Source of the DNA: Methylobacter sp. S3L5C
Lineage (GTDB): Bacteria; Pseudomonadota; Gammaproteobacteria; Methylococcales; Methylomonadaceae
Length of the DNA stretch: 32,000 nucleotides
Reading direction: 5' to 3'
NCBI RefSeq assembly: GCF_022788635.1
Contig: NZ_CP076024.1
Location: 3,541,503-3,573,502 of the forward strand
In this document: positions 5,561 to 23,418 of the stretch, piece after piece
Numbering within the stretch: the stretch's first letter is position 1
Layout: the number at the start of each line of letters is the position of its first letter
Position numbers and translations under genes: made by a program
The notes under the pieces: model-generated
Seen by the model: only the letters and a program-made list of their open reading frames with translations
What the model was told of the DNA's origin: nothing
Database searches by the model: none

Positions 5561-5572
5561 ATTAGCGTCAAA

Positions 5573-6136
5573 CTATTGAAAATACTCAGTCAGATCATCA
5601 TTAATAGCGTCAAGATCAAACTCTTCGGGATCAAACTCCCCGCCTAACCATTCCAGCGTATCTTCATACTCAGCATGTTTGGGATCTAAAACTATTGCAA
5701 TAAGCTCTTCATACCCCCAGATACCACCACAATCTTCTGGTGGACAGGCACGCTTACCTTTAAGGCAAACAGGCAAGGCAATTTCAGTATCAAAAGGCAG
5801 TATTTTTTCGAGCAGTATTTTGTGTTCCCAGCTATCCCCAAAATCATATTCATAAATCAGGGAATCCTTTTCCTTTGTTAACAATTGCGCCAACGTGTAT
5901 TGTGTCTCGTCTTCCGTTTCCAGATCATAATCTCCATCGGGGACACTATAAAATGTTTTATTGGCAATAAATTGGTGTAAATGACTGTTGGTCCAGCCCA
6001 TTACAACCTGAATGACATCATGAAAGGCAGATAAACCTATATCACTGGCAACTAAAACAGTACGCCAAATGGGCGGTTTGGCACCCATCAATGAAATTTT
6101 TATTTGATAAATAACCCTTGATTGCTTCGTTGCCAT
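5573..6136 (-). CDS. pRiA4b ORF-3 / MM3350-like domain protein (function unknown)
   Basis: The N-terminus IYQIKISLMGAKPPIWRTVLV...FHDVIQVVMGWTNSHLHQF...YEYDFGDSWEH is the characteristic pattern of the PRiA4_ORF3 family. It is followed by a Cys-containing segment (CLKGKRACPPEDCGG). Confidence 0.7.
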   Translation of the reverse strand: MATKQSRVIYQIKISLMGAKPPIWRTVLVASDIGLSAFHDVIQVVMGWTNSHLHQFIANKTFYSVPDGDYDLETEDETQYTLAQLLTKEKDSLIYEYDFGDSWEHKILLEKILPFDTEIALPVCLKGKRACPPEDCGGIWGYEELIAIVLDPKHAEYEDTLEWLGGEFDPEEFDLDAINDDLTEYFQ

Positions 6137-6454
6137 TTTAATAACTCCGTCAAAATATAAATTTATTGATATTATTTACACAAGCATACTAAGGTGACTC
6201 CTAAAAGGGTTAAGTTTACCTGATACTTAATTTGTAAATAATTACCAACATTTAATGTTATGATTTTATTGCATTATTACTATAATAACAACAATATATC
6301 AATCTAATAATGTAAATAAAAAACTACATTTCTATAAAATTCTTTACAAAAAGTTATTAAGTAGCGTGTGCGTTAAATAATCCATGACTCATAGATGCAT
6401 AAAATAAATTAGCAGCTAAACCCATCAATATTATTTATTATGAATTTATCTATT

Positions 6455-8203: not shown

Positions 8204-8311
8204 TTTAAATTATATTATTATATTAGTTGAAAAATAAAAACGCTGTTAGCGCCGACTGAAACCGAGTTCTAGAGCGTTCTAGAGCATTAAAAATAACCCT
8301 ACCCATATTTA

Positions 8312-8650
8312 CTACCGACATTCCGTACCTTTGCACATTACGATTAGGGTAGTAAGCCGCTGCTGGCCATCTATGATATTTAGACGGAGGTCTTTCTCTC
8401 TGTCTTGTTGGTGCAGGATAATGCTACCCAGATAAAACGGATGAGAAGCTGGCTGCAAACCTGTTGCTGGTTTAAAGTATCTGCGCAGATCATCCAGCAA
8501 GCATTGAAGCTGAGATGCCCTCCAACGATAGGGGCGCTGATATTCTGGCAGGTGGAGAGAGCCCTGAATCTGCGCGCCATCACTGGCTATAATACTCGGT
8601 TCACCAGCAAACAACTCGGCCAGCGAACAGCTGGCAACAATAATACTCAT
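8312..8650 (-). pseudogene. Truncated DUF262 gene remnant (N-terminal 112 codons only)
   Basis: Encodes LPEYQRPYRWRASQLQCLLDDL...FYLGSIILHQ...IIDGQQRLTTL and stops a few codons later. Intact DUF262 proteins continue for several hundred residues. It has an SD-like AAGGA upstream of its ATG and lies 69 nt after the hsdM stop. Confidence 0.6.
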
Positions 8651-8719
8651 CTCAACCTTTCCTTAAATCTTTGAATAGAGCGAATCAAGCAGCTTGAATC
8701 TTCGGAAAATATTCAACCT

Positions 8720-10177
8720 TTATGGTTTAAGTCCAACCGCTAGATCCCGGAAGGAGGCAAGCGCAGCTTCAAGGTGCTCAATGATTTCCTGCTGTAAAAC
8801 ATACGGAGGCGGCAGATCATCAAGATTGTCGAGAGTGTCATCCTTGTGCCAAAAAATATCCAGACTGGCTTTATCACGGGTTATTAATTCGCTATAGGTG
8901 AAGTATTTGAATCGTTCGGCTTCCTTACGCTCATGCCGATTTTCAGGGTTGTAGCAGGTTATAAAATCCCGCAAATCATCGAGCTTCAGGGTTTTTGTTT
9001 TCAGCGTGAAATGCTTGTTAGTGCGCAGGTCATATATCCACACACCTTTAGTATGCACCTTACCGTCTTTTGGTTTAGCGTCGAAAAACAGCACATTCGC
9101 CTTCACGCCTTGGGCATAAAATATGCCGGTGGGTAAACGCAGCAAGGTGTGTACGTCGCAGTTCTCCAGCAATTTTTTGCGAATTTTCTCGCCCGCTCCG
9201 CCTTCAAATAACACATTGTCCGGCAATACAACGGCGGCTTGGCCTGTGTCTTTGAGGATGGTGACGATGTGCTGCAGAAAGTTAAGCTGTTTGTTGGATG
9301 TGGTTTCCCAAAAATCCTGCCGCTCGTAAGTTAACGCGTCTTTGTCTTCCTCGCCTTCCTCATTGGTAATGGTCATGCTGCTCTTCTTACCGAATGGAGG
9401 ATTCGCTAACACGTAATCGAAACGTTTACCCGGATCACCAATCAACGCATCGGCACGCTCCACGGAAGGCTCGCCATCGAGTTCGCCGATATTATGCAAA
9501 AACAAATTCATCAAACACATGCGCCGAGTGTTGGGCACGATTTCATTGCCTTGGAAAGTGTTATGCCGCAGAAACTCTTTTTGTTTTTTATCCAGCGTGT
9601 TGCCAGAGCGGGTTAACCAATTGTAAGCACCCAGAAAAAACCCGCCGGTACCGCAGGCAGGATCTGCAATTGATTTCATCGGTTCGGGACGCACGCATTC
9701 CACCATCGCCTGAATCAGTGCGCGCGGCGTAAAGTATTGGCCCGCACCGCTCTTGGTATCCTCGGCATTCTTTTGCAGCAAACCTTCGTACAAATCGCCC
9801 TTGGTATCGGCATCCATACCCACCCAGCTTTCAGCATCAATCATCTGCACCAGTCGAGATAACTTGGCCGGGTCTTGAATCTTGTTTTGCGCCTTGAAGA
9901 AGATTGCGCCCAACATACCCGGCCCAGTGCCTAGCTTGTGTAGTGTCGCTAGATAATGCGCTTCCAGCGGTTCACCCACCTTACTGCGTAAACTGGCCCA
10001 GTCATAACCTTCTGGAATATGGGTATCGCGGTTGTACGGTTCTTGCGCGTACTCATGCGCCATCTTCAAAAACAGTAAATAAGTAAGTTGCTCCAGATAG
10101 TCGCCATAGCCCACGCCGTCGTCGCGAAGAGTGTGACAAAAGTTCCAGACTTTCTGAATCAGGGTGCTTGTATTCAT
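8720..10177 (-). CDS. hsdM: Type I restriction-modification system DNA methyltransferase subunit M
   Basis: HsdM N-terminal pattern (IQKVWNFCHTLRDDGVGYGDYLEQLTYLLFLKM), AdoMet motif I ADPACGTGGF and catalytic motif IV NPPFG. The likely start is the ATG at 10175-10177, which overlaps the upstream TGA (ATGA). The ORF-track start at 10195 is a TTG extension. Confidence 0.93.
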   Translation of the reverse strand: MNTSTLIQKVWNFCHTLRDDGVGYGDYLEQLTYLLFLKMAHEYAQEPYNRDTHIPEGYDWASLRSKVGEPLEAHYLATLHKLGTGPGMLGAIFFKAQNKIQDPAKLSRLVQMIDAESWVGMDADTKGDLYEGLLQKNAEDTKSGAGQYFTPRALIQAMVECVRPEPMKSIADPACGTGGFFLGAYNWLTRSGNTLDKKQKEFLRHNTFQGNEIVPNTRRMCLMNLFLHNIGELDGEPSVERADALIGDPGKRFDYVLANPPFGKKSSMTITNEEGEEDKDALTYERQDFWETTSNKQLNFLQHIVTILKDTGQAAVVLPDNVLFEGGAGEKIRKKLLENCDVHTLLRLPTGIFYAQGVKANVLFFDAKPKDGKVHTKGVWIYDLRTNKHFTLKTKTLKLDDLRDFITCYNPENRHERKEAERFKYFTYSELITRDKASLDIFWHKDDTLDNLDDLPPPYVLQQEIIEHLEAALASFRDLAVGLKP

Positions 10178-10962
10178 AGAAGTTCCTCTACCCAAGCTTT
10201 ATCACGATGTGAGCCAATGGCTGACCTGAAAAAGCTTGAATATTCGTGATCGAGAGATAGATGTTCTTGCAAGTGCGTGATGATGACGGGCTGATTACCT
10301 ACAAGGCGAATCAGGTCGTCCAACAAGCGCCAATCGTTTTTTTTGCTTTCAGGTATGTTCCATTCGTTAAAACCAAGCCGCTCAATCGTGTAGTACGCAC
10401 GCTGGTATTCCCAAGTGCCAACAGGTGCAGCGAGCTTGATCTCACCATCTATAGTGTGTGCCAACAAAGCGCAATCGGCCTCAACACATGGATCAAGCAA
10501 CCTGGGGATTTCAGCGGTAATTGGGCTCGCGGGGGCGTTGCAACGGCTGGTCTCGTTCTGGAGAGGAAATTCGTTGGCCTTGCCGTGCAATGTTGTAAGT
10601 TCGTCTTTCTCTGGCCGATTGCACCGTTGGCACGAAAGGCGGAAGTTCGACCACTCATACGCCAGCCAGAAGTAACCGTTATGCCCGACCAGCTTGACGC
10701 CATCCACCGTAATGCCGAGCTTAGGTCGGAAATGGTCTACATCAAAAACCGCACGGTTACTCTTCGCCTCGCAGTACCAACACTTATGTCCACTGGCGTT
10801 CGATAGCCACTTCTTGAGCAGCCCCCAACTGCCATTCTTCTTCAGATATTTTGACCGCTCTTCTTGCGTGACGAGTGCATTGACGACAGCAACCCTTGCT
10901 GGGTAAACCTTAATCCATCGCGCTGGCAGATTTGGTGGTAAAGGAATAATGACGAATCTCAC
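10174..10962 (-). CDS. TIGR02646-type HNH endonuclease, PtuB-like (Septu-like nuclease partner)
   Basis: CWYCE-x10-DHFRPK and WSNFRLSCQRCNRPEK form a His-Me/HNH pattern. The GTG start overlaps the ATPase stop (GTGA) and the stop overlaps the hsdM ATG (ATGA). Confidence 0.8.
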   Translation of the reverse strand: MRFVIIPLPPNLPARWIKVYPARVAVVNALVTQEERSKYLKKNGSWGLLKKWLSNASGHKCWYCEAKSNRAVFDVDHFRPKLGITVDGVKLVGHNGYFWLAYEWSNFRLSCQRCNRPEKDELTTLHGKANEFPLQNETSRCNAPASPITAEIPRLLDPCVEADCALLAHTIDGEIKLAAPVGTWEYQRAYYTIERLGFNEWNIPESKKNDWRLLDDLIRLVGNQPVIITHLQEHLSLDHEYSSFFRSAIGSHRDKAWVEELL

Positions 10963-12665
10963 CTACGATCCCCCTGCAAGCTGCTCAGCAGACTTTGCAC
11001 TAAGGCATCTAAGGCCTTTTGCTTGTTTTCAGGCGTGACGATTGCACCGCCGATTTCGCCATCAGCCGCGAGATCGAATCTCGCCCGCAAATATTCCTGC
11101 TCCAGACGATCTCGTGAACCGAAATTGAAATCCAAGCCTTCCAGGCGCTGGCGAACTGCAACCAGCTCTTCTCGGTCGGTATCGCTCAATGTCGCTTGCG
11201 TGGAAAGCTGGTGCAATGAGAGCAGGTCAGTATTGGTGGCCTTGTCCAAGCTGGAGCCAAGACCAAACATATCGCTGGTAATGATACCAGCAAAGCCCAT
11301 GCCCTTGGGGTCCATGGCAGGGTTTTCCGAATGCACTGTTCGAGCGCCGGAGTCTCGGTATAGGATTTGGACTTGCTCTTTGACAAGCTCAGCAATCGCC
11401 AAGGGATTGTGAGTCGTCAGAACAATATGGCTATTGTCCTCACCTTCGTTGTTTTGCCCCACAAAGGACTTCAAGTAGCTCAGGTAGTCAACGCACCAAC
11501 GCGGATTCAAATGCGTATCCGGCTCATCCAGCAAAAACAGGCTTTCATCCTCGGCGGTGAAGCGCAGCAAGCCCAACACTGTCAATAACTGTTGCTCGCC
11601 TTCGCTGAGCTCACGGAACGTCACACTGCCGTCGTTTTTCTTGAGACGCACGCGGATGCGCACTTCTTCAATCAGCTCGGAGACATAGGTGCTCTCCAAA
11701 TCTCGGAAGAACTGCGCCGGAGCCTGATTGCCCACCAAACGCCGTAACGCGGCAATGTCTTTCACGTATAGATATTTGAACTGCAGGGTTTTCTTGTTCC
11801 AGATCGATGTCGACACGCGGCGACTGATGTCAACCGGAGCCAAAGCAATGTCATAAAGGCGGGACAGGAAGTCGCGTACTACGCCCCGTGCATTCCAGAA
11901 ACGCGGGTCGCCATCGGCAGCCTTTGATTTCCAGGGTGGTTGGCGCAGTACGAACAGCACCGATTCAATGCCTTCGTCCGGATCAAGACCCAAATGATCA
12001 TCCAGGAAAGCCCGCACCATGTCCGACTGCTGGAATAAGAAGGCAAGCAGCACGAATTGACTGTGCACAGGCATTGCGTAAAACAGACGCTTTAGGCCGG
12101 GGTCTTCGCCATTGCGTAGCTTGCTATCGTATTTCTCCAAGTAAGGACGGAATATGTCGCGCATGCGTGTGCTTTCGCCTGAGTAGTAGCCGAAAACGTA
12201 GCGAGGCAGATACTTGCAATCGTCTTTTAAGAAATCAAGGAGATGGATGCGAGCTTTGTTTAATTTTTTCTTAACTTCAGAGTTAGCTTCAAACAAATAA
12301 CCCAATGTTTCGTGTTGCTTAGTGTTTTTGATTTGCTCTATATCTTGTGCGTTGCCCACATAAAACTGAATGGGATCCGCTTTGCGATCCGGGTCAGAGC
12401 TAATGTAAACATGAAATAGGCTCTCACCCGTGCCTATGCGATAACTGAGCTCAAAGGCAAACGCTGGCATGCGCTTCATGGTAATTAAATCACGGAAGAT
12501 GATGGCCAACGCCTCCAGCACGTTGGATTTGCCCGTGCCGTTCCATCCGATGACCACAGTCACCCAGTGATCCTGATCGAAGTCGATGGTGACGTTTTTC
12601 AGGTTCTTGAACTGGTGCGTCGGGCTATCTTTGGCGCTGCCAATGGTAAGTTTATCCAGGCGCAT
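10959..12665 (-). CDS. ABC/SMC-like AAA ATPase, PtuA-like (restriction-system-associated ATPase)
   Basis: Walker A GWNGTGKSNVLEAL, signature-like LSEGEQQLL, Walker B LFLLDEPDTHLNPRW, H-loop LTTHNP, with a long insertion between Walker A and the signature motif. The start ATG is 2 nt after the hsdS stop. Confidence 0.8.
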   Translation of the reverse strand: MRLDKLTIGSAKDSPTHQFKNLKNVTIDFDQDHWVTVVIGWNGTGKSNVLEALAIIFRDLITMKRMPAFAFELSYRIGTGESLFHVYISSDPDRKADPIQFYVGNAQDIEQIKNTKQHETLGYLFEANSEVKKKLNKARIHLLDFLKDDCKYLPRYVFGYYSGESTRMRDIFRPYLEKYDSKLRNGEDPGLKRLFYAMPVHSQFVLLAFLFQQSDMVRAFLDDHLGLDPDEGIESVLFVLRQPPWKSKAADGDPRFWNARGVVRDFLSRLYDIALAPVDISRRVSTSIWNKKTLQFKYLYVKDIAALRRLVGNQAPAQFFRDLESTYVSELIEEVRIRVRLKKNDGSVTFRELSEGEQQLLTVLGLLRFTAEDESLFLLDEPDTHLNPRWCVDYLSYLKSFVGQNNEGEDNSHIVLTTHNPLAIAELVKEQVQILYRDSGARTVHSENPAMDPKGMGFAGIITSDMFGLGSSLDKATNTDLLSLHQLSTQATLSDTDREELVAVRQRLEGLDFNFGSRDRLEQEYLRARFDLAADGEIGGAIVTPENKQKALDALVQSLLSSLQGDRR

Positions 12666-12667
12666 GG

Positions 12668-14368
12668 TCAGGTCGCCAACAGCTTCAGCCGATCGTGCAG
12701 TTTACGGCCTTGGGTGTCCGTAACCGCCTCTACCGCCAAACGACCCGCTTTATCCAGCATGCGCAGTTCGGCGTACAGCGCTTCAATTTGCTCGGTCTGA
12801 GCACCATCGGCCACACCGCAGCGACGAAATGCTTCTTGGGCTGTCACCCAATCGCCCGCCTCGCCGAGCACGTCAATTAATTTGCTCACCACGGCGGCGA
12901 TCTCCTTTTGTTGTTTGGTTTTACGCACCTTCGGCTGCTTTTCGCGCTCAGCCCTTTCTGCACGAATACGCTCCAGCAACACGCTGGCTGGTTCTTCGTT
13001 GGGGGCTTGCGGCACCAACTGGCCGGAAAAAGCGGCTTTGAGGATGTTTTTGCGTTGGACGGCAGATTGTTTGAGGGAAAGCTCTACCGCATTCTCTTGG
13101 CGATTAAGGTTTTCAATCTGCAATTCGAGTTGACTCAATAGCTCTCTTTGTTCTGATGCAGGGCCTAAGGGAACAGGAAACATCCGCAACATAGTCATGT
13201 TAATTGATGCCAAGTTGGTCGTTTGCTTGCCTGCGTTTTGGAACCACAATTTGCCGAAAGTATTGCCATGATGCGAGATCAGCTCTGGCAATACCTCTGG
13301 CAAATACAGGCGCATGCGGAATACGTGGTTTTGGTGAATGCAATTGGCAACTTCATCACTCCACACCCAGCCACGTCCAAGCTTGTCTCGATCACCACCT
13401 TCGTTAAACAGCACATCACCGGCTTGTAATGTTAATTCCGCAATGTCGCGCTCAGTGGCCAAAATGGTCTTTATTTCGGAAAGATCGAGAAAGCCGCGCT
13501 GCACGTTGGCCACCCGTAAATACGGTACTTCGCGAACCTGGACATCAGGGTTGCGTTTTGTTCCTTTAGCAACGCCTGATGCAATTTCACCTAGCATATC
13601 CAAGCTCGTCCAAACCCACCCCTCCGGCAATTCCGACAAATCGCTAGTATCAGGGTTGGCCGGCTCGGGGTATTTGCTTTGCCAGCCTTTAGGCGGAGCT
13701 TTACCTTGTTCTTTAAATTTTGCTAATTGCTTGGCTTCCCAGAAGATTCGGCGCTCGGTGAGGATGCGTTCCAGCAATACAGTGCCGGTTTCTTCAGGTT
13801 GGTTTGTTGTACGCCACTCGGAAGTCAGCTCACCTTCCACTGCTGCTTTCAGCAGCGATTGCCGATACTGCACCAACTTCTTCTGTGCGGCCTTGAGTTC
13901 GCCCACCCCGGCGTCGAGATCGGACAGCATTTCTTCGAGTTTTTCGACGATGCGAGTTTGCTCAGCCGCAGGCGGCAAGGCCAGAAATTCTTTGCGTAAG
14001 TGCTGGTAATGGCGACCATACCCACGATTCTCAAGATCAATAGTTCCGAGCTGTAGATACGCAAACATCGGGTCCCAAAGCGCAGTCGGGGCAAATAGCT
14101 TGACTCCATCCGCTCCAACAGCAAACGGAAATTTCACGAACTTGAAACGGCGGGTGTGGTCACCAAAAACGATCACCGGAACTGGTGAATTAACTTTCGC
14201 ATTCAAGTCATTGGTATATCCACCGATCAGACCTTCACCTTGATCAACTACAGGTAGTTCGCCTGCTGGTAAATAGTCTTTCTGTTTAATGCGAAATCCA
14301 CGATCCGAGATGAGTTCAACGGCTTCATCAAAGCCAATCTGCAACCAAGAACTAGGTAAACCCCTCAC
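12668..14368 (-). CDS. hsdS: Type I restriction-modification specificity subunit S, with an extra C-terminal tail
   Basis: Two target-recognition regions, each followed by a conserved coiled-coil spacer (LPPAAEQTRIVEKLEEMLSDLDAGV...; PLGPASEQRELLSQLELQIENLNRQ...) and a repeated LLERI-x-ER motif. The GTG start overlaps the hsdR stop (GTGA). Confidence 0.9.
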   Translation of the reverse strand: MRGLPSSWLQIGFDEAVELISDRGFRIKQKDYLPAGELPVVDQGEGLIGGYTNDLNAKVNSPVPVIVFGDHTRRFKFVKFPFAVGADGVKLFAPTALWDPMFAYLQLGTIDLENRGYGRHYQHLRKEFLALPPAAEQTRIVEKLEEMLSDLDAGVGELKAAQKKLVQYRQSLLKAAVEGELTSEWRTTNQPEETGTVLLERILTERRIFWEAKQLAKFKEQGKAPPKGWQSKYPEPANPDTSDLSELPEGWVWTSLDMLGEIASGVAKGTKRNPDVQVREVPYLRVANVQRGFLDLSEIKTILATERDIAELTLQAGDVLFNEGGDRDKLGRGWVWSDEVANCIHQNHVFRMRLYLPEVLPELISHHGNTFGKLWFQNAGKQTTNLASINMTMLRMFPVPLGPASEQRELLSQLELQIENLNRQENAVELSLKQSAVQRKNILKAAFSGQLVPQAPNEEPASVLLERIRAERAEREKQPKVRKTKQQKEIAAVVSKLIDVLGEAGDWVTAQEAFRRCGVADGAQTEQIEALYAELRMLDKAGRLAVEAVTDTQGRKLHDRLKLLAT

Positions 14369-17145
14369 GCCACCAACTCCTCATTCATCTCTGTCATCAA
14401 TTCATCCAGTTGTTTGCCAAACACCGTCCAAACCTTCTGCAACCCGCCTTTATCCGCAAACTCGGCATAGTCGAAATCATCACGACTGATACTGCAACTA
14501 CTGGCTATGTGGTCTTTGATCATCCGTAGCCATTCGGTTTGTTCGGCACTAAATGCCGTGGTGCGCCGGGCATTGTGGCGGAAGATCCATTCTTGAAAGC
14601 GTTTATCGACCTGTTCGCTAAAGGGTTTGAGTTCGGTATCTAGGCCGATGGCAAAGCGCAGCAGTGCGATCAGGTCGGTCAATTGGCGCTTACTGTTTGC
14701 ACCTTTCACTTGGCTGGTTTGCACTCGGGCATAGGCGCTCCACAGCCGTTCGGTGGTCAGCATCAGCGGCGGGCGGCTTAAGGCATCGTGCAATTCATCG
14801 ATCATTTCAAAGGTTAGCGTGCGGCGTTGGTAAGGTTGTTGGTAAAAGAAACTTAAGGCTTCGATTTCTTGCTTGTGCTGGTTGATGTAATCGGTGAAGG
14901 TCTGAATAATTTTTTGTGCCTGCGCTTCGGCTTGCTCGCTGTAGCCGGAAAAGGTGACTTGATCGAGATTAAGGTGGTCGATCAATTGTTCACGTTCGCG
15001 GCGAGCGGATTCGATTTGCTCGCGCAGTTCGGGTTTATCAAACGGCTCGCAGGCTGCGGCAACGCGCTGGGCACGGGCGGCGCTGATTTCATCTTCGGTA
15101 AGCGAGTCATCGCTACGGGTAATGCCTTGGGCTTTTGCTGTCGACAGAGCGGCTTCGATGATTTTGTCGGGGTCAATTGCGGTAATCAGCCGCTTGGCAA
15201 GTTCGCTGACGGGAATGCCGCCGGACACTTTTTCGATGCGGGCCTGAGCTTTGTCGTCCAATTGTTTGGATAAACGCAGCAAACGATTGGCAAGACTTAA
15301 TACGGTGTCGTCGTCGCGGTGGCCGATGGCGATGCCTTGCAGTAAATCTTTAAGGGCGACACCGGGTTTTTTCTCCAGCGGGCGGGATTCGGTTTTAAGC
15401 GACTTCTCCACGCCAACGGCATCAATCAGCACGAAGCGGGTTTTGGCGCTATCGGCGCTATTGCTGACACGTTTTAAGTCGTCAAAGCCCAAGCTGCGGA
15501 CGCCGCGACCTTTCATTTGTTCATAGTAGCCTTTGCTGCGCACATCGCGCATGAACAGCAGCACTTCCAGCGGTTTAACGTCGGTACCGGTCGCGATCAT
15601 GTCAACGGTGACGGCAATGCGCGGATTGTAGTCGTTGCGGAAGCTGCTGAGAATGCTGTCCGGGTCTTCTTCGGCTTTATAAGTGACCTTTTTACAGAAG
15701 GCGTTACCCTGACCGTAAACTTCGCGCAAGATATTGATAATGTCGTCAGCATGGCTGTCGGTCTTGGCAAAGATCAGTGTTTTTGGAGTTTCCTTGCGGC
15801 TGGGGAAAATTTGGTTTTCCACCGCTGTTTTCATGGCCTGGATCACTTGCCGAATCTGGCTAATGTTGACGACGGAGCGGTCCAACTCTTTGCCGGTGTA
15901 GAGCGCGTCTTCTTCGGTTTCAGCCCATCGTTTTTTGCGCGTTTGACGGTCGCGGTGATCAACCCATTCTTTGGCTTTAAGTATCGAACCTTTTTGGGTA
16001 ATTTCAGTTTCAATCTCGAAGACATCGTAACCCACGTTAACACCGTCGGCCACAGATTGCTCATAGGTGTATTCGGCAACAATGTTTTCGTTAAAGAAGC
16101 CGAAGGTGCGTTTGTCCGGCGTGGCTGTCAGGCCAATAAGGTAGGCATCGAAGTAGTCAAGCACCTGCTTCCACAGGTTGTAGATGGAGCGATGACACTC
16201 GTCGATGATAATGAAGTCAAAGGTTTCGACTGGAATGACTGATGTATAACGCACTAGCTTGGCTTGTTTCGAAGTTTGCTGAAGCTCGTTAAGCGAGACA
16301 TCTTCAGCTGAATCGTCAATGGGTTCACCAGACAATATCGAATACATACGCTGGATGGTGGAAATGCAAACCTGCGAATGGGGATCAATGGTCGAAGATG
16401 CCAGACGCTGCACATTATAGAGCTCGGTAAATTTTCGTCCGTCGTCAGGCGGCGAGTAGGCCATGAATTCCTGATGCGCTTGCTTGCCGAGGTTACGAGT
16501 ATCAACCAGGAACAATACACGTTTGGCTCCGCCGAACTTTAGCAAGCGATAGACCGAGGTAATGGCGGTAAAGGTTTTGCCTGCGCCGGTGGCCATGTGT
16601 ACGAGGGCGCGGGGCTTGTTTTGTGCAAGAGATTTTTCCAGTCCGGTAACAGCACTGACCTGACAGTCGCGCAGGTTGCGCTCGGGTAACACAGGCATCT
16701 GCTCGGCCAGTCGGCGGCGCAGAGTTTCTGGCTGAGCCAACCATAAGCTCAGTTGTTCCGGCTTAAAGAAGTGGAACAACTCGCGTGAGCGGGGTATGGG
16801 GTCGCGGCCATTGGTAAAACGGATGATCTGGCCGGTACTTTCGAACAGAAAAGGCAGCGGAGTGGTTTGCACTCGCCACTTCAGGGTAGCGTTGGCGTAA
16901 CGCTCGGTCTGTCTTTCTGTCACGGTAAGGTTCTCACCAGCTTCATCACGCTTGGCTTCGATCACTCCCACGGCTTCTCGATTGACGAACAGCACGTAGT
17001 CCGCCGGTCCAGTGTCAGTGGGATATTCACGCACCGCAACGCCTTGGCCTGCACCCAAGTTGATTTGCTTCATATCCTGAATTGTCCAGCCCGCCCGTTC
17101 GAGTTTCTGGTCGATCAGTTGCCGTGCTTTGACTTCCGGGGGCAT
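14365..17145 (-). CDS. hsdR: Type I restriction enzyme R subunit (EcoEI/EcoAI-like, helicase-nuclease)
   Basis: N-terminal nuclease region (ARQLIDQKLERAGW...), helicase motif I MATGAGKTFTA, motif II IIIDECHRS, and a long C-terminal helical domain. An ATG at 17145 preceded by AAGGA is favoured; the ORF-track GTG at 17172 is the alternative start. Confidence 0.92.
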   Translation of the reverse strand: MPPEVKARQLIDQKLERAGWTIQDMKQINLGAGQGVAVREYPTDTGPADYVLFVNREAVGVIEAKRDEAGENLTVTERQTERYANATLKWRVQTTPLPFLFESTGQIIRFTNGRDPIPRSRELFHFFKPEQLSLWLAQPETLRRRLAEQMPVLPERNLRDCQVSAVTGLEKSLAQNKPRALVHMATGAGKTFTAITSVYRLLKFGGAKRVLFLVDTRNLGKQAHQEFMAYSPPDDGRKFTELYNVQRLASSTIDPHSQVCISTIQRMYSILSGEPIDDSAEDVSLNELQQTSKQAKLVRYTSVIPVETFDFIIIDECHRSIYNLWKQVLDYFDAYLIGLTATPDKRTFGFFNENIVAEYTYEQSVADGVNVGYDVFEIETEITQKGSILKAKEWVDHRDRQTRKKRWAETEEDALYTGKELDRSVVNISQIRQVIQAMKTAVENQIFPSRKETPKTLIFAKTDSHADDIINILREVYGQGNAFCKKVTYKAEEDPDSILSSFRNDYNPRIAVTVDMIATGTDVKPLEVLLFMRDVRSKGYYEQMKGRGVRSLGFDDLKRVSNSADSAKTRFVLIDAVGVEKSLKTESRPLEKKPGVALKDLLQGIAIGHRDDDTVLSLANRLLRLSKQLDDKAQARIEKVSGGIPVSELAKRLITAIDPDKIIEAALSTAKAQGITRSDDSLTEDEISAARAQRVAAACEPFDKPELREQIESARREREQLIDHLNLDQVTFSGYSEQAEAQAQKIIQTFTDYINQHKQEIEALSFFYQQPYQRRTLTFEMIDELHDALSRPPLMLTTERLWSAYARVQTSQVKGANSKRQLTDLIALLRFAIGLDTELKPFSEQVDKRFQEWIFRHNARRTTAFSAEQTEWLRMIKDHIASSCSISRDDFDYAEFADKGGLQKVWTVFGKQLDELMTEMNEELVA

Positions 17146-17560
17146 GCTGGTTTGTCCTTGCTCAATTTCCACTTATTTAATTTATTCCGCTTGTCTTGAG
17201 CAAAAAACACAACTTTTATTATTAATGCAAAACGAGTCAAATGCATCAAAACTTAGCTCATTATTTGATGCTCATCTGGGAGATAAGCCGCTTTTTTATC
17301 CATATTAAGCTAGTAGGCTATAACGAACGACATCTAAATTTCCATAGTAAAACAACATTATACTGGTTTTCTGTGGTCAATTGATATTAAATGAACATCG
17401 TCCAAGTATGTTCCATTTCTGTTTGGAAAATTCATTGCCATTGCTAGTCTGCCAGTTGATGATGAGTTTTCGTAGGATATACGATGAAGTATTACGGAAC
17501 TGTTTTAGCGAGCTGTTGTGTCAGTAGATTCGTTCTATTTCTATTTTTGTGACCATATAT

Positions 17561-17998
17561 TTATTCTGTTCTTTCTCGATCAATCCTTGGCAAAGGTTCA
17601 TTCAATTGATTCTCCTTCATGCCATATTTGTAAGCATTGTATTGCCAAATCACAAATTGTTCTAATAATGCCGAGTTTTTCTGCTTGAGGCTTTCTATTT
17701 CGCTTTGCTGCCTTGCAATTCGATCACCAGCCATAGTTAAACTACTAGGCTTGGGTGTAACAACCCCCTGTACTTTAAGAGTTGCTTTCCTGGAACTATA
17801 AGCCTCTTTTATCAGCTTATTGGCATTGAGAGATTGCCGAGTCGGGTTTTTACCTATAATGGGCTCAGATGCTTCGCAAATACTCTCCCAAGTCAGCTTT
17901 TCGTCCTTCCAGGCATAGATAATACTGATAATTGCTTCTACATCAGTCTGTGTTAAATGCTTAGCCAAGTCCACCTCCCAAAAGTTTCGCCATATCAT
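17561..17998 (-). CDS. Hypothetical small protein trailing the recombinase trio (positional analogue of Tn554 TnpC)
   Basis: 145-aa ORF overlapping the 3' end of the upstream recombinase gene, with a coiled-coil-like segment (RQQSEIESLKQKNSALLEQF). The start is ambiguous: a TTG at 17968 preceded by GGGAGG is an alternative. No family recognised. Confidence 0.5.
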   Translation of the reverse strand: MIWRNFWEVDLAKHLTQTDVEAIISIIYAWKDEKLTWESICEASEPIIGKNPTRQSLNANKLIKEAYSSRKATLKVQGVVTPKPSSLTMAGDRIARQQSEIESLKQKNSALLEQFVIWQYNAYKYGMKENQLNEPLPRIDRERTE

Positions 17999-19988
17999 CT
18001 AAAAGATTGGTATCGTCAGAATTTTTTAACGCAATTATTGCTTGCTTTGACTCAATGGCACGACGTAGTGGACTAAACGATTTATCATTACGTAATTTAA
18101 TTTGCGCACCGTCATCTACATCTGGATGCTCTAGTATGGAAACCAGTTCTAGCAAACGCTCAAAGGTATTTTTATGATATTCGTACCAACGATCTGCTCC
18201 TGACAGCCCTTCCTTTAACGCATTTTCTGCCGCCTGAAACAGCTGCTCAACTTTATTTAGTCGCGCTTTGATCCGTATAAGTTTTTCATTCTCGCCCTTT
18301 ATGCAGACTTGCTCATGGCAATTTAGACAATCCCTGTATTTTTCACAAGGAGTCATGGTGAAATCATGGACGCATACACCAAACTCCGTAACATGAACGG
18401 CACCTTTTTCCATGGTGTTGAATTCCTGAATGGTAATTGGCAGGAACTTGTCAATTTCACCCGATGGCCCGAACAGCGTCAGCGATGTGTCCAGCGCCTC
18501 AGCTTTGGCTACCATCTCGTACTCGCTCATGTGATTATAGGTACGGTTCTGCTTTTGATCCGCACGCCCCGACCATTTGGCAATTTCTAGCTGCGACAAG
18601 CCACCACGTTGGGCAAAAGTATTGAGCAAATGACGCGCTTGATGTGAGTTCAGCTTGATTTGCTTTCCATCAGCGGCAAGATAGCCGTGTCTATCGAAAA
18701 TACTCTGATGTGTACTACTTTTTAGGCTTTCTCTGGGAGACAAGTCATTGTTAACAACATTATGAGTAGGAGCCCAAAGAATTACTGGACTAACTCCACG
18801 GCCTGTGCCGATTAAATTTCTTCGCATACAGAATAAAGCATTGCTATACTTAATTTTTCTCTCCCGATTTATCCAAGGAAATCCTTCCGGTTGCCTTGAA
18901 AGTACATATTTCCAAAGACTCTTGAGAGTATGCACACCATCTTTCTGTTCCAATCCAAAATTGTTTAATGACGTACGACACTCCTTTGATGTGCCATTGG
19001 CTTGACCTAACGCTTGGCAAGCCTCCTTCATCGTAAGTGGATAATCATCGTCCAACTTTGGGCAGCACTCATGCCGATAAAATTTATCAGGATTTGTCTC
19101 AATCCACTTAGCAAGCTTTCTCGATTCCTCAGTTAATTTCATTAGCCGCTTGATCGCTTCTTTGGCAATACCTACCATTTCCGTTGGAATCCATTTTATA
19201 TCGCCACCAAATCCCTTTCCTGCGTAAAAACGCCACCCGTAGCGCGACACGCCCTTAGAATCAAACTCTTCCACCTCACAGTCAACGGGCAGTTCCAGCA
19301 CCTCTGTAATGCGGGATGGGGCGCACATTAGCATTGCGAACGCACAAGAAGTAAAAATATCTTTTGGTTCTGTTGAATCGGCGGCAAAGATTTCTGCCAT
19401 CGCTATTAGCGCTTCTTCAGAGGGTAACTTTTTTTCTCGCCGGGCTTTGGCTTTTTGTCCTGTTTGAGTTATATCGGTTTTACGTGCTATAGGATTTCTC
19501 CACCCGCCTAGATCCGCTGCAATCAGCTTTTTTGAAGTAACAAACTTAGCGAGTCGTTCCAACTCTCTGCCCCCATGATAATCAGCACCACTTAAGTAGC
19601 AGGCTCTCATGAGCTGCGATGCATTATCTAAAATGGGTATGGAAAGATTGTGAATGCTTGCAAGGACGCTACTTTGAAGCAATGCGGCTTCAATCGTCCG
19701 AAGTGCTTTCAGCTCGTTTTTAGCACCAGTTGGCTTATGTCCTTGTTGATACCGGAAGTAGGCTTTTGCAAAATCAATAAAATCATCATCCAATTTGTCG
19801 GCTTCATCTTTAGTGCGTGAATTAGCACCAGACTTGGTAAAGTTTCCAGCTTTAGGCCACCTCCAAGCATCCCAATCCAGATCATTACCAAAAACCGTTA
19901 GATCAGTTTCGCATTTGCTGATGAATTCCAGCAAATTACGTTCGGCATCAATTTCCGATTTCGGTTTAAAATGAAATAGTTCAGCCAT
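17961..19988 (-). CDS. Large tyrosine recombinase/integrase (third of trio, Tn554 TnpB-like size)
   Basis: Catalytic-domain landmarks CAPSRITEVLEL (Arg I), SHQARHLLNT (HxxRH) and DQKQNRTYNHM (Tyr), plus a Cys-rich stretch CVHDFTMTPCEKYRDCLNCHEQVC. The ATG overlaps the preceding gene by 8 nt. Confidence 0.85.
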   Translation of the reverse strand: MAELFHFKPKSEIDAERNLLEFISKCETDLTVFGNDLDWDAWRWPKAGNFTKSGANSRTKDEADKLDDDFIDFAKAYFRYQQGHKPTGAKNELKALRTIEAALLQSSVLASIHNLSIPILDNASQLMRACYLSGADYHGGRELERLAKFVTSKKLIAADLGGWRNPIARKTDITQTGQKAKARREKKLPSEEALIAMAEIFAADSTEPKDIFTSCAFAMLMCAPSRITEVLELPVDCEVEEFDSKGVSRYGWRFYAGKGFGGDIKWIPTEMVGIAKEAIKRLMKLTEESRKLAKWIETNPDKFYRHECCPKLDDDYPLTMKEACQALGQANGTSKECRTSLNNFGLEQKDGVHTLKSLWKYVLSRQPEGFPWINRERKIKYSNALFCMRRNLIGTGRGVSPVILWAPTHNVVNNDLSPRESLKSSTHQSIFDRHGYLAADGKQIKLNSHQARHLLNTFAQRGGLSQLEIAKWSGRADQKQNRTYNHMSEYEMVAKAEALDTSLTLFGPSGEIDKFLPITIQEFNTMEKGAVHVTEFGVCVHDFTMTPCEKYRDCLNCHEQVCIKGENEKLIRIKARLNKVEQLFQAAENALKEGLSGADRWYEYHKNTFERLLELVSILEHPDVDDGAQIKLRNDKSFSPLRRAIESKQAIIALKNSDDTNLLDDMAKLLGGGLG

Positions 19989-21522
19989 TTGCTAACTCAT
20001 CCCTTCGTATAGCGCATCGCTGTATCACATCGGCAATAGCAAGAATGCTACGATCATTGACGGCAGCTATTTGTTTGTCTCCAGTAAGCTCCAGTAGTCT
20101 TTCCCTTTCTGAGATTAATTCTTCGTAGGCGATTTCATGAGGGCCATCCAGCCATGGCTGGAAGTGCATACAGGTATAACAAGTAATTGGAATGCTTGCC
20201 CCACAAAATCCGTAACTCCCGCAAGACCCCAAGCCTTTTCCATCAACTTTAATGCGGCTATTGAGGTCGTTACCTCTTTTAGCATCAGCTTCCGAATCAA
20301 CAAGCACACCTGCAAAAGCTTGCGCGTAGGGGGCAAGGTAATGCCCAACAGCCTGATCCAGCTTTTCAACATGCTCAGGTATATTTTTGATATACACGCC
20401 GGCATTTTGTGTATCAGAATGATCAAGCAGTTCTGCAATAACCATTTCGCCAAAACCTTCTCTCGCGGCTCTGGTGCCTGTGGTATAGCGAAACCTAACG
20501 GGTGTAATATTCAGTAATTCCCCTGTACGTTCAGAATATATTCTTGCTTCATCGGCAATGTGCTTGCAGACCTCTGAAACTTTCACTGACTGAATATGCA
20601 ACAGATCAGTCTTCAGGGAATCCCTTAGCTGACGTGGAGAGTTAATTTTTGAAATCTCGCTCATGTCAGGAAATAGCGGCAATTCAACCCTATCCATCTC
20701 CTGCAACTTAAAACCAAGCACCTTCTCGACTGACTGAACTACATGCACTGTTTGTGCATTCAGTATCGCCCAGAGCTCTTGGGTAATGGCGAACTGCTTA
20801 AACTGGCCTCGAAATTCTGTAGCCCGCTGCTTTGCCCTTGGCATATTCAACAAATAAAAAGGTTCGCTCTTTTTGTTTGAACCGTTCAGGACGTCTTTTA
20901 ACCGCAAATGAGAAATTTGGATTGGGCGACGGCCAGTATTGCTAATCGCCAGTCCCAAGGCTAAGTCTGTTAGCGTAATTGTATCCCTTTCATAGGCTTG
21001 TATCGCGCCTTCATTAAATGCTTGTAGTTCAATGTCACTTAGAGGGCCTCTGACTGGATCAAGTCGCTTTATGACATCCCCTTTGATGTTTCCCTTGATA
21101 GTCCAGTCATCCAATAAATCGATAACATCATCAGATATTCCTTCATACCCAAGGTCATACCATTTTCTTAGGAAACCACGAATTGTACCTAAATACCATT
21201 CGGTATCTCTTGTAAGTTTAGCTCTGTAGTTAATTAATACCGTATCAGTGACAACTGATGCTTCCGTAATTCTGAGCATGTGTAAAAAATATATATTTAT
21301 ATTTCCTGTATGTGAAGCTGATAGATTGGACGCATAATAAGTCAACACCTTTATATAGCTTTTTGCTATTGAATTTTCTAGCAAGCAACGAACTGAACTT
21401 ACATGGGCTTTTGTGTTTTTATCTAACCGCCAATAATCATCATCTGGACAAAATAAATACCCTGCTTTAGAGAAAACTTGTTCTCTTGCAATGGTAATCT
21501 GCTTTTTATTTTCACTTTTCAT
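19981..21522 (-). CDS. Tyrosine recombinase family protein (second of trio, atypical box II)
   Basis: SNTGRRPIQISHLRL (Arg I), VRFRYTTGTRAA where HxLRHTxAT is expected, LLDHSDTQNAGVYIKN (His/Tyr), and a Cys-rich stretch CGSYGFCGASIPITCYTCMHF. It overlaps the first gene by 11 nt. Confidence 0.78.
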   Translation of the reverse strand: MKSENKKQITIAREQVFSKAGYLFCPDDDYWRLDKNTKAHVSSVRCLLENSIAKSYIKVLTYYASNLSASHTGNINIYFLHMLRITEASVVTDTVLINYRAKLTRDTEWYLGTIRGFLRKWYDLGYEGISDDVIDLLDDWTIKGNIKGDVIKRLDPVRGPLSDIELQAFNEGAIQAYERDTITLTDLALGLAISNTGRRPIQISHLRLKDVLNGSNKKSEPFYLLNMPRAKQRATEFRGQFKQFAITQELWAILNAQTVHVVQSVEKVLGFKLQEMDRVELPLFPDMSEISKINSPRQLRDSLKTDLLHIQSVKVSEVCKHIADEARIYSERTGELLNITPVRFRYTTGTRAAREGFGEMVIAELLDHSDTQNAGVYIKNIPEHVEKLDQAVGHYLAPYAQAFAGVLVDSEADAKRGNDLNSRIKVDGKGLGSCGSYGFCGASIPITCYTCMHFQPWLDGPHEIAYEELISERERLLELTGDKQIAAVNDRSILAIADVIQRCAIRRDELANG

Positions 21523-22765
21523 TACTTACCCCTTCAGGCACTCGAACCATTCCTTCCTGTAACTTCAGCGCCGCTTCATTTGCCTTCTTTTTCACAAAGC
21601 GCTTGTTATAGTGTATTGCTGATCCAGAGCCTTCCTTCCAACCCATAATATATGATCGCATTTTTTCTTGCTCTTCTTGGCTAGGAGGGTTATCCATTGA
21701 GTCCATTCGAATGGAAAATGCCTCATTCCATGTATGGCGTAATTGGTGGCCTGTGAGATTAAATAATGTGGGTGATGCTGTTCGTACAACCTCGATTACT
21801 TTTTTATAACCTGATTTTGAAAGAGGTTGACCTTGCGTTGGACCAGACTTATGGGTCACAAACAGAAAATCATTCTTGGTCGAATTAGGAATAATCTTCC
21901 TGCCATTAAGAATATAGTGATGAATTTCTTGTACTAAGGTATCTTTCATAGGAAGGCGACGATCCAGCGTTTTCACCAAAGGCTGATTTGTTCTAGGATC
22001 ATCTTTTTCGTCTGCCCTCCTGACAACGACTAGCTGGTTTTTACCAAAGTCAATGTCACGAATCCGAATATTCAAAAGCTCACCACCCCGTAAACCAAGG
22101 TAATAAAGCATCAAAAAGATTAACCGGTTTCTGATTCTGACTGACTCATCTGCAAATGGATTAAGTTCTGAGCCGGGTCTGAACATTTCAAAAAGTAAAT
22201 CCAGTTGTTTTTCATCCAAACCTTTCTCATCGCGCTCCATATTGCGATTCTTTTTTATGGGTCTTCTGGCTTTCAGACCTTTTTCCATTTTATCGATTTG
22301 CAATACGGTTAACCGATCCTTACTGCTGCCAAAAATTTGTTCGGCCAACCACTTGGTATATTGGGCGATAACAGTCAGTCTTACATATTCTGTTTGAGAG
22401 CTAACCTTCTCATTAAACTCCCGCAACTCTGAAAGGGTAAATATTCCGTTACTATTTTCTTTAGTCGTTTGGGTGCTAAATTTTATCTGGCAAAAATCTC
22501 TAAGCGCATCAAGTTCATGCTCCTTGAATAACTCTCCCTTTTGAAATCGATTTTCAATGTTCTCACCCCGTTCCTCCAGGTATCTCAACAAAACAGAAAC
22601 CCCACCCAAACTAGATTCCATTGATGAATAAGACAGCGATCTATTACGCGACTGAGTAGTAATAAACAGATTAGGATAGAACAATGGCAAACCCGTAAGA
22701 TTATCCACTAACAGGCAATATCGCTCCCCTGACACCATAACAAACGTTTTTATAACGCTCTTCAT
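21512..22765 (-). CDS. Tyrosine recombinase/integrase (first of trio)
   Basis: LMLYYLGLRGGELLNIRIRDID (Arg I), LTGHQLRHTWNEAF (HxLRH) and GWKEGSGSAIHYNKRF (Trp/His...Tyr). This is the classical phage-integrase catalytic layout. Confidence 0.88.
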   Translation of the reverse strand: MKSVIKTFVMVSGERYCLLVDNLTGLPLFYPNLFITTQSRNRSLSYSSMESSLGGVSVLLRYLEERGENIENRFQKGELFKEHELDALRDFCQIKFSTQTTKENSNGIFTLSELREFNEKVSSQTEYVRLTVIAQYTKWLAEQIFGSSKDRLTVLQIDKMEKGLKARRPIKKNRNMERDEKGLDEKQLDLLFEMFRPGSELNPFADESVRIRNRLIFLMLYYLGLRGGELLNIRIRDIDFGKNQLVVVRRADEKDDPRTNQPLVKTLDRRLPMKDTLVQEIHHYILNGRKIIPNSTKNDFLFVTHKSGPTQGQPLSKSGYKKVIEVVRTASPTLFNLTGHQLRHTWNEAFSIRMDSMDNPPSQEEQEKMRSYIMGWKEGSGSAIHYNKRFVKKKANEAALKLQEGMVRVPEGVSNEK

Positions 22766-22855
22766 TATCTGTATTACTCATAAAATTTACATTAGATATA
22801 TGGTATCACATAACTGATAAATATCAAATGAAAACTTTACAAAAAAAATCCCTAT

Positions 22856-22887
22856 GGAAACAAAAAAGCCTCTTATAACAGAGGCTT
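22856..22887 (-). terminator. Rho-independent terminator of ssb
   Basis: On the minus strand: AAGCCTCT-GTTATA-AGAGGCTT followed by TTTTGTTTCC. Perfect 8-bp stem (22866-22873 / 22880-22887), about 36 nt after the ssb stop. Confidence 0.7.
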
Positions 22888-22923
22888 ATCTACATTCTTT
22901 ACATAATGATATTAAGGTGTCCG

Positions 22924-23418
22924 TTAAAAGGGTATATCGTCATCAAAATCATCATAATTAGGGAGCGGAGGAGTCGATCCCGGATTATTTTGCTGTGCGG
23001 GTTGCTGAGGCTGGTATGCAGGTTTGGATGATGGTGCAGAATGCCCGCCCATCTGTGCTTGATCACCGCCAAAATTGCTGGTACCGCCACTACGACTGTC
23101 CAACATGTGCATTTCTGTGGCAATTATTTCGGTAGTATAGCGATCCAGTCCATCCTGCCCTTGCCATTTTCGCGTTTGCAAACGCCCTTCTACATAAAGC
23201 TGACTGCCTTTTTTTAAGTATTCACCGGCAATTTCAGCCAAACGGTTAAAAAAGACCACTCTATGCCATTCAGTAGATTCTTTTTTCTCGCCTGATTGTT
23301 TATCCTTCCACCTAAAATTAGTCGCCAAGGTTATGTTCGCTACAGCACCACCCGTTGGCATATAACGGACTTCAGGATCAGCACCCAACCGGCCAATTAA
23401 CGTTACTTTATTAAGCAT
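22924..23418 (-). CDS. ssb: Single-stranded DNA-binding protein
   Basis: [34 protein letters not shown]...[35 protein letters not shown], a Gly/Gln/Pro-rich linker and the acidic tip DDFDDDIPF. Confidence 0.96.

Follow-up and report, generated by a model that had tools for sequence, protein, structure and literature searches.

A ginABCD recombination module and its genomic island at the 3′ end of ssb in Methylobacter sp. S3L5C

What kind of mobile element places three overlapping tyrosine-recombinase genes and a small fourth gene directly behind the chromosomal ssb gene of a methanotroph? The question is raised by a stretch of 32,000 nt from Methylobacter sp. S3L5C (NZ_CP076024.1, positions 3,541,503-3,573,502; hereafter the window, whose own positions are used throughout), in which an earlier note, made from the letters alone, had seen a Tn554-like or recombinase-in-trio (RIT) integration module and had considered that it might represent a distinct family. 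Here, the region is assigned with high confidence to the ginABCD recombination module of a 'genomic island with three integrases' (GInt, Tn6571-type), 16.7 kb in size and located at the 3′ end of ssb. Judged from its sequence, the island is well preserved and probably functional. The proposed undescribed family is given up, since the module is the ginABCD operon already described (PMC5385486), and the question is closed in that the module now has a name and its mechanism has been tested in other GInts.

The recombinase operon and its relatives

GInts, as Bardaji et al. (2017, Sci Rep 7:46254, PMC5385486) describe them, carry an operon of three integrase-like genes and a gene for a small helical protein at the end adjoining their target, together with 2.5-70 kb of cargo and a far end that is short and AT-rich, and their borders are marked by imperfect direct repeats. 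They yield circular excision products, and both excision and integration need all four genes. Six of the 11 GInts outside the type family sit at the end of ssb 'without altering the product', among them one in Shewanella baltica with the repeats CCGTTTTTAATT and CCTTTTTTAATT, and restriction-modification (R-M) systems are frequent cargo (PMC5385486). The Methylobacter locus has the same build. Three integrase-like genes and one for a small helical protein overlap in a same-strand operon beside the target, followed by cargo of the variable kind and a short AT-rich 3′ end in a tripartite layout. Homology to Gin proteins is evident by BLAST for GinA and GinC and, by way of plasmid operons, for all four. 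The insertion is site-specific and leaves SSB unchanged, imperfect direct repeats border it, a related genome holds the empty site, and the R-M and defence cargo and the patchy distribution are likewise as in GInts.

The Gin proteins of P. stutzeri DSM 4166 were compared in the parts printed in the supplement of Bardaji et al. ORF1 matches GinA with 35% identity over 223 residues (E 5e-29) and ORF3 matches the catalytic stretch of GinC with 43% identity (E 2e-11); ORF1 to ORF4 are listed as ginA to ginD in Table 1. All four ORFs match four-gene plasmid operons position by position, at 50-61% identity in E. coli, at 33-37% in P. aeruginosa and, for ORF2 to ORF4, at 27%, 29% and 34% in Stutzerimonas stutzeri. 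Across the plasmid gin operons, ginB is 27-61% identical to the second genes and ginD 34-53% to the fourth, and weaker positional matches are found in the four-gene operons of Vibrio halioticoli and Bacillus thuringiensis plasmids. From the P. stutzeri type GInt this clade differs in being only ~30-35% identical.

The overlaps of 11 and 8 nt between the three recombinase genes, the location of the set at the island edge directly after the ssb terminator and its inward transcription had all been read correctly in the earlier note. All four ORFs lie on the minus strand, successive overlaps along the operon are 11 nt, 8 nt and, for the fourth ORF as called, 38 nt, and the first recombinase gene starts 158 nt past the ssb stop codon, just beyond a terminator hairpin, and reads towards the cargo. 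The fourth ORF of 145 codons exists and does overlap ginC, but the real gene is most likely 135 aa long. In relatives, the codons upstream of 'LAKHL' hold stop codons, a GGGAGG Shine-Dalgarno sequence stands 5′ of the TTG at 17968, and other assemblies of the same strain call the gene as 135 aa. A start at this TTG gives an overlap of 8 nt, which fits the other gene pairs with their 11 and 8 nt.

Catalytic landmarks had been reported in all three recombinases, and both arginines and the tyrosine are indeed kept in each. ORF1 matches Pfam PF00589 (Phage_integrase; E 4e-15) and aligns with the XerC-like structure 4a8e across the Arg-I and HxxR motifs, and its R226, H340 and R343 (H340-x-x-R343), W376 and Y386 are invariant in ten homologues. 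ORF2 scores 650 bits against the NCBIfam model NF041502, 'site-specific integrase' (cut-off 350); its catalytic residues are R198/R199, R345, H368 and Y377, and the box II histidine is replaced by V342, where most relatives have Asn. Matches of ORF3 to Pfam and PHROG integrases are weak, and R226, E229, K258, H449, R452, H453, W472 and Y484 are each conserved at 95-100% among 130 diverse family representatives (31-52% identical). The PHROGs search gave nothing further than 'integrase' and a PDB profile search with GinC gave no match. Profile comparison of GinC or GinB with GinA returned negligible probabilities; the proposed Arg-I motifs were paired in it, and this pairing is not relied on.

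Some 55 residues past the catalytic tyrosine, GinB and GinC each carry a Cys/His cluster that is invariant across the family, consisting of C434, C440, C448, C451 and H453 in ORF2 (GinB residues 434-453; window 20170-20220) and of C539, H541, C548, C554 and C557 in ORF3 (GinC residues 532-562; window 18300-18380). Since these residues are conserved across relatives, the Cys-rich stretches remarked upon earlier in the two larger genes are real and are features of the family, and they possibly form a metal-binding, perhaps zinc-binding, module. The available sections of the literature on GInts and on their sister class, SEs (short for strand-biased circularizing integrative elements), hold no mention of such a cluster.

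The family is large and thinly spread. GinC-like proteins form 1501 representative clusters in an exhaustive search, and 865 relatives at E <= 1e-3 were found among the 8000 best word-sharing candidates that the clustered protein collection gave for scoring. A GinC homologue is present in 4 of 201 genomes sampled from the order, its own genome included, and when same-genus loci were checked with the Gin proteins the operon was found only in a Crenothrix metagenome-assembled genome (MAG; G003). Fourteen related loci were collected from species genomes of Methylobacter, Crenothrix, Methylomarinum, Legionellaceae and MAGs of other Gammaproteobacteria. The order ginA-B-C-D is kept in all loci with enough sequence, and ssb ends 147-160 nt before ginA in eight of the nine with an upstream flank, the ninth having a 2.8-kb insertion between the two genes. 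The lack of conserved linkage that the earlier note had allowed for was thus not found.

Some of these relatives show decay. The ginB gene of a Methylobacter tundripaludum MAG has an in-frame stop codon (locus L038, 2150-3691) and ginC is frameshifted in another locus (L048, 3461-5463). Partial copies of the 3′ end of ginD lie downstream of ginD in three loci (L041, 13059-13196; L048, 9926-10042; L050, 2331-2408), in L041 and L048 just past attR, which points to GInts arrayed in tandem, an older one having lost the greater part of its gin operon.

Table 1. Features of the island and its target in the window
Feature	Position	Strand	Description
ginA	21512..22765	-	Ordinary-size tyrosine recombinase, 417 aa, complete catalytic set
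ginB	19981..21522	-	513 aa; Arg-I, Arg-II, His-III and Tyr kept, His-II absent; C-terminal Cys/His cluster
ginC	17961..19988	-	Large tyrosine-recombinase-fold protein, 675 aa; full R-K-H-R-W-Y; C-terminal Cys/His cluster
ginD	17561..17968	-	Small helical accessory protein, ~135 aa from TTG 17968 (most likely extent); ORF from ATG 17998, 145 aa
ssb	22924..23418	-	164 aa; Pfam SSB E 2e-40; last codons D D D I P F stop form the attachment-site core
attL	22886..22933	-	Left copy of 48-nt imperfect direct repeat (ACCCTTTTAACGGACACCTTAATATCATTATGTAAAGAAT..); identical to sister-strain empty site
Terminator hairpin	22866..22887	-	AAGCCTCTGTTATAAGAGGCTT followed by T run; left element end, between ssb and gin promoter
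ginA promoter-like block	22785..22841	-	TTGATA-16-TGnTACCAT at 22800-22827; from promoter scan and cross-locus conservation; putative function
TGTAAA motifs	22835-22841 and 22785-22791		Flanking the ginA promoter-like block
AT-rich right end	6211..6454	-	Further TGTAAA motifs; ends in conserved arm ATCAGGTAAACTTAA
attR	6163..6210	-	Right copy of 48-nt imperfect direct repeat (ACCCTTTTAGGAGTCACCTTAGTATGCTTGTGTAAATAAT..)
Whole insert	6171..22893	-	16,723 bp, delimited against sister-strain empty site
Main cargo	8312..17172	-	Type I R-M operon: hsdR, hsdS, AAA_21 ATPase, 262-aa protein, hsdM; then truncated GmrSD_N gene (Pfam)
Second cargo block	6455..8203	-	Low-GC (28-34%), full-length GmrSD/DUF262-family gene; Pfam GmrSD_N E 3e-33

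Ends of the island and the empty site

The empty site downstream of ssb, for which the earlier note had proposed to search, was found by an exact-sequence look-up of the SSB protein. The sister assembly GCA_025583945.1 (locus L065) encodes an identical SSB, and the genes that flank the island on its far side in the window, PRiA4_ORF3, AAA_33, creA and purL, begin there 64 nt after ssb. This locus aligns to window 28049-22886 (94.8%) and 6210-202 (98.5%), and the two alignments overlap by the 48-nt repeat only, which therefore delimits the insert as 6171-22893 (16,723 bp). With an empty site and discrete ends, the view of the trio as the integration module of a mobile island is borne out. A first comparison within the same genus had given no empty site, as other genes stood behind ssb in the genomes compared, with purL, creA and the PRiA4/AAA_33 pair on other contigs; homology to two genomes of the genus (G001 and G016) resumes at 6140-6149. 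The PRiA4_ORF3 and AAA_33 (zeta-toxin-like kinase) pair, at 3986-6136 in the window, thus stands directly after ssb in L065 and on other contigs elsewhere in the genus. The neighbourhood of ssb is rearranged repeatedly in the genus.

The repeat that borders the insert is the longest direct repeat in window 5900-23100, and its copies (6163-6210 and 22886-22933) are spaced by 16,723 nt. They agree at 36 of 48 positions, a number reached in none of 200 shuffles (best per shuffle: mean 27.6, max 32). Both copies open with ACCCTTTTA(A/G), which encodes the Pro-Phe-stop of SSB, and continue as NGRNCACCTTA...TGTAAA(G/T)AAT. The arm ATCAGGTAAACTTAA directly precedes the right-hand copy, and an ATCAGGT(A/G/T)A arm precedes attR in L041, in L048 and in an E. 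coli plasmid. In L041 and L048 the attL/attR pattern recurs at 7.9 kb and 9.3 kb, respectively, where the variants ATCAGGTGAACTTAT and ATCAGGTAAGTATAA precede a second ssb-end-like core downstream. No long terminal inverted repeats were found in the repeat search of window 5900-23100, and the sole match of a 15-mer attachment-site search (<=3 mismatches) was a chance one in purL.

Between ssb and ginA a conserved order is evident, consisting of the ssb stop codon, NNNNNACCT, ~11 nt, TGTAAA, the terminator hairpin, TGTAAAG, TTGAYA-16-TGnTACCAT, TGTAAA and ginA. An equivalent hairpin occurs in all related loci. The element brings its own terminator and putative promoter.

The position of the exchange can be read from the empty site, ...ATACCCTTTTAACGGACACCTTAATATCATTATGTAAAGAAT/ATCAATAAAC... 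(slashes mark junctions), which agrees fully with attL up to and including ...GAAT and, from ATCAAT onward, with the flank distal to attR. Relative to this strain, the identity pattern therefore places the exchange 39 nt past the stop codon, at the repeat's far edge. A second pair of sites comes from E. coli IncF plasmids. In the occupied NZ_CP122931.1 (L058/L074) the leading region holds a 13.2-kb GInt with ssb on one side and the DUF905-ParB-psiB genes on the other, where the naive NZ_LT985319.1 (L073) has none; it carries Avs4, an AbiGi gene and IS2, and CCGTTCTA repeats border it at the ssb stop codon. The naive site reads ...ATTCCGTTCTAA/CGAAAGACAG..., the occupied left junction ...ATTCCGTTCTAG/GATTTACCTAAGACG... 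and the occupied right junction ...GTATCAGGTTATCTGAACCGTTCTAA/CGAAAGACAG.... Exchange took place here in the core, at the stop codon, with inverted AGGTRA... and ...YNACCT arms around CCNTTT, and the comparison of naive and occupied junctions implies that the ACCT...TGTAAT arm was supplied by the element in E. coli. By its sequence, the core site looks like a classical tyrosine-recombinase site.

A sequence resembling one end of the island also stands where no island follows. A second SSB gene, ssb2 (145 aa; L032, 8910-9347), lies beside topB, ~315 kb away from the window and in the opposite orientation to ssb1. The 83-nt stretch after it (G000:C1:3249326-3249409; L032, 9327-9409) is 93% identical to window 22862-22944 and spans the ssb end, the ACCT..TGTAAA arm and a GInt-type terminator; it is either an unoccupied attachment site or the footprint of a GInt. 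Similar sequences stand after ssb2 in two further genomes (G018 and G015), and most native ssb1 downstream regions in the genus are without the arm; these observations, the 83-nt stretch included, were counted towards footprints.

Rival readings and a model of movement

Several points weigh against the assignment to GInts. The GinB fragment published for P. stutzeri was not matched significantly by ORF2 in BLAST. The literature portrays GinC as being without the first arginine, or without the RHRY motif, but in this clade GinC keeps all of these residues. Its structure model is of low confidence (predicted local distance difference test, pLDDT, 58.6), and the top fold matches, which are all tyrosine recombinases, are weak (best E 6e-3). 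For this particular element, excision and circle formation are predictions from the experiments on Pseudomonas GInts, and transfer is hypothetical. Furthermore, the exchange point seen in the empty site, 39 nt beyond the stop codon, lies outside the canonical core defined by the E. coli pair. The published GInts also differ from the island in this exchange point and in the length of the flanking repeat, 48 nt here and 10-17 nt in the available descriptions, and a methanotroph is not among the hosts named in the available GInt literature. The offset of the exchange point fits two readings. In one, the element integrated into a site already bearing a GInt-like arm and the event was resolved at the TGTAAA motif; in the other, integration took place at the core and the sister site is the footprint of a non-canonical loss.

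The offset might also recall the one-strand chemistry of an SE (intA-tfp-intB-srap), a class in which the element is copied out in the form of a nicked circle, with no empty site left behind. Both have a similar series of proteins, in which the first recombinase is ordinary, the second protein partly degenerate, the third recombinase large and complete and the fourth protein small, and the island shares with SEs (SE-6283, SE-6945) a four-gene tyrosine-recombinase module at one end, a site-specific target, a size of ~15 kb, the lack of transfer genes, inverted arms around a short spacer and a gammaproteobacterial host. SEs were compared here by description, as given by Idola et al. (2023, Mob DNA 14:7, PMC10214605), where SE and GInt proteins form separate sequence clusters. 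These proteins do not find each other by BLAST, yet ORF1 and ORF3 match GinA and GinC, and ORF2, at 513 aa and with R, R, H and Y, is unlike a Tfp, which has at least 550 aa, is without RHRY and belongs to a separate cluster. The end of ssb is a documented GInt target (PMC5385486), and the sister strain has an empty site, which shows that the island is polymorphic between strains, the outcome of excision within one cell line being a separate matter. An SE is thus a very improbable identity for the island. Because ORF1 and ORF3 match Gin proteins, and because no accepted Tfp is as short as ORF2, whose arginines and tyrosine are kept, the module is filed as ginABCD.

The original label of a Tn554-like element holds only loosely. 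In one nomenclature the ginABCD elements (Tn6488, Tn6571) are subfamilies of a broad 'Tn554 family' (PMC8865565), so the label is defensible in that wide sense. TnpC is regarded as the counterpart of GinD and Srap. Overlapping tyrosine-recombinase genes with a small ORF and site-specific insertion are indeed shared with Tn554 of Staphylococcus. Tn554 in the strict sense (TnpA, TnpB, TnpC) has two recombinases and no counterpart of the middle gene, is known from the Firmicutes Staphylococcus and Enterococcus and uses a different target, whereas the window holds three recombinase-fold genes. RIT elements do have three adjacent tyrosine-recombinase genes, but their proteins, all with a catalytic tyrosine, are 315-410 aa long, they have 34-bp terminal inverted repeats and no fourth gene, and no such cargo has been described for them; neither the sizes nor the repeats nor the missing fourth gene is seen in the module. 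The earlier remark that the gene sizes fit neither archetype was sound, the proteins being 417, 513 and 675 aa with a fourth gene beside them and without long terminal inverted repeats, and a Tn554 or RIT element in the strict sense is hardly credible. The NCBIfam gamma-mobile-trio (GmtX/Y/Z) was also tried as a candidate and rejected, as the GmtY model gave 26 bits against a cut-off of 340.

A different question is whether the island is a GInt by descent only, now an immobile fossil, the strain difference having arisen by ordinary deletion or recombination. Decayed relatives are common, as illustrated by the stop codon in ginB of L038, the ginC frameshift of L048, the partial ginD copies past attR in L041 and L048 and an R-M cargo that stands behind ssb2 without gin genes in another genome (G004). 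The junction of the empty site differs from the expected product of excision at the canonical core, and the transfer of a natural GInt has never been reproduced in the laboratory (2024 preprint of the discovering group). Against this stand the four intact genes, all open and with their catalytic and Cys/His residues conserved, and the preservation of both ends, the promoter block and the terminator. In addition, on Crenothrix MAG contigs (L046, L047) with ssb-ginA-B-C and ginC-ginD-hsdR, HsdR is 95% identical while SSB is just 74% identical. An immobile remnant is therefore considered unlikely.

If the island is a GInt that still moves, GinA to GinD would jointly recombine attL with attR, by analogy with the Pseudomonas elements, to yield a circle and an empty site, and the circle would reintegrate at the conserved end of an ssb gene. 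The core in the predicted circular junction would be a 12-6-12 site, AGGTAAACTTAA-CCCTTT-TAACGGACACCT, with putative outer TGTAAA motifs ~20 nt to each side, and gin expression may be coupled to recombination through the TGTAAA motifs that surround the promoter. Since all three recombinases keep Arg-I, Arg-II and the tyrosine in this clade, GinA, GinB and GinC may each cleave a particular strand or site, which would depart from the picture of a non-catalytic GinC in the published work. GinD is a candidate accessory DNA-binding or architectural factor; its model (pLDDT 77), with a helical bundle at the N terminus and, over residues 78-115, a long helix, has no significant structural neighbour (best E 0.8) and is described only as 'helical bundle plus long helix'. 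The ssb target presumably works because the codons of the C-terminal tip of SSB are near-universal in chromosomes and conjugative plasmids.

One may speculate further that the clade uses the SSB-tip codons as a portable landing pad and carries defence systems one at a time between chromosomes and conjugative plasmids, where it would dock at the leading-region ssb gene, the offset exchange and the footprints at ssb paralogues being traces of repeated visits, perhaps by way of a second exchange site at TGTAAA. We regard this as a tentative proposal that deserves serious consideration. If true, it would explain the spread of GInts despite their lack of transfer genes, and how GInts move between cells is still a question for the discovering group (2024 preprint). 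A plasmid ssb as docking site would make such movement testable in laboratory E. coli. To what is known of GInts this copy adds a clean comparison, in a methanotroph, of naturally occurring occupied and empty sites, a clear view of how the sites of ssb-targeting GInts are built and, across a large clade, the presence of catalytic residues in all three Gin proteins.

Cargo, plasmids and distant operons

The defence cargo predicted in the earlier note is present in the form of a type I R-M operon and GmrSD genes (Table 1), the AAA_21 ATPase and the 262-aa protein within the R-M operon being a nested ATPase/nuclease pair. In relatives, the genes adjacent to ginD encode type I R-M systems (L042, L049 and the Crenothrix contig with the 95% identical HsdR), type II R-M systems (L040, L048) and Avs3 (L043), the exceptions being an amidase (L041) and a carrier-family protein (L044). 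On plasmids this position is held by Avs4 (E. coli, Salmonella), a type ISP R-M enzyme (P. aeruginosa), a helicase with an AAA ATPase (Citrobacter) and a reverse transcriptase (E. coli IncY). As the genes next to ginD are mostly defence genes, defence cargo is typical of this clade. It is not put forward as new, since Hochhauser et al. (2023, PMC10121019) already name GInts among the elements that carry defence in E. coli.

A locus related by cargo rather than by recombinases is found in genome G004 (L034, G004:C59 11300-14856; L054). A homologous type I R-M operon (hsdR with 86% nucleotide identity) lies ~310 nt behind ssb2 there, follows a degenerate left-end arm without gin genes and has the same PRiA4_ORF3/AAA_33 pair after it. 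The locus resembles a GInt that decayed and lost its recombination module.

A tblastn search with GinC gave 159 plasmid records, of which 96 are typed conjugative. In four of six inspected records (Citrobacter, E. coli IncF, Salmonella and P. aeruginosa) ginA begins 133-159 nt after the ssb gene of the plasmid leading region. What the analysis adds here are examples, the E. coli IncF pair among them, of the same clade behind plasmid ssb, with Avs4, type ISP R-M or other defence cargo; docking at plasmid ssb is offered as a lead and not as a claim of discovery. Plasmid carriage as such was dropped as a novelty; for the name Tn6571, Hochhauser et al. (PMC10121019) cite a paper on Pseudomonas IncpRBL16 plasmids (Jiang et al. 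2020).

Two plasmid operons are more distant. The Bacillus thuringiensis plasmid pGR157 (L063, 647-5228) encodes recombinases of 369, 466 and 538 aa, weakly homologous by position to GinA, GinB and GinC, and a 146-aa protein annotated as TetR/AcrR that has no BLAST match to GinD; a restriction endonuclease and a nuclease-domain gene follow, and the operon is a Firmicute relative of the module. The Vibrio halioticoli plasmid AP024877.1 (L064, 1407-7618) has an unannotated operon of 506, 554, 858 and 195 aa, whose first three genes match ginA, ginB and ginC weakly and whose second protein scores a weak 89 bits against NF041502. The operon may belong to an SE, in which case GinB, not GinC, would have Tfp as its positional homologue.

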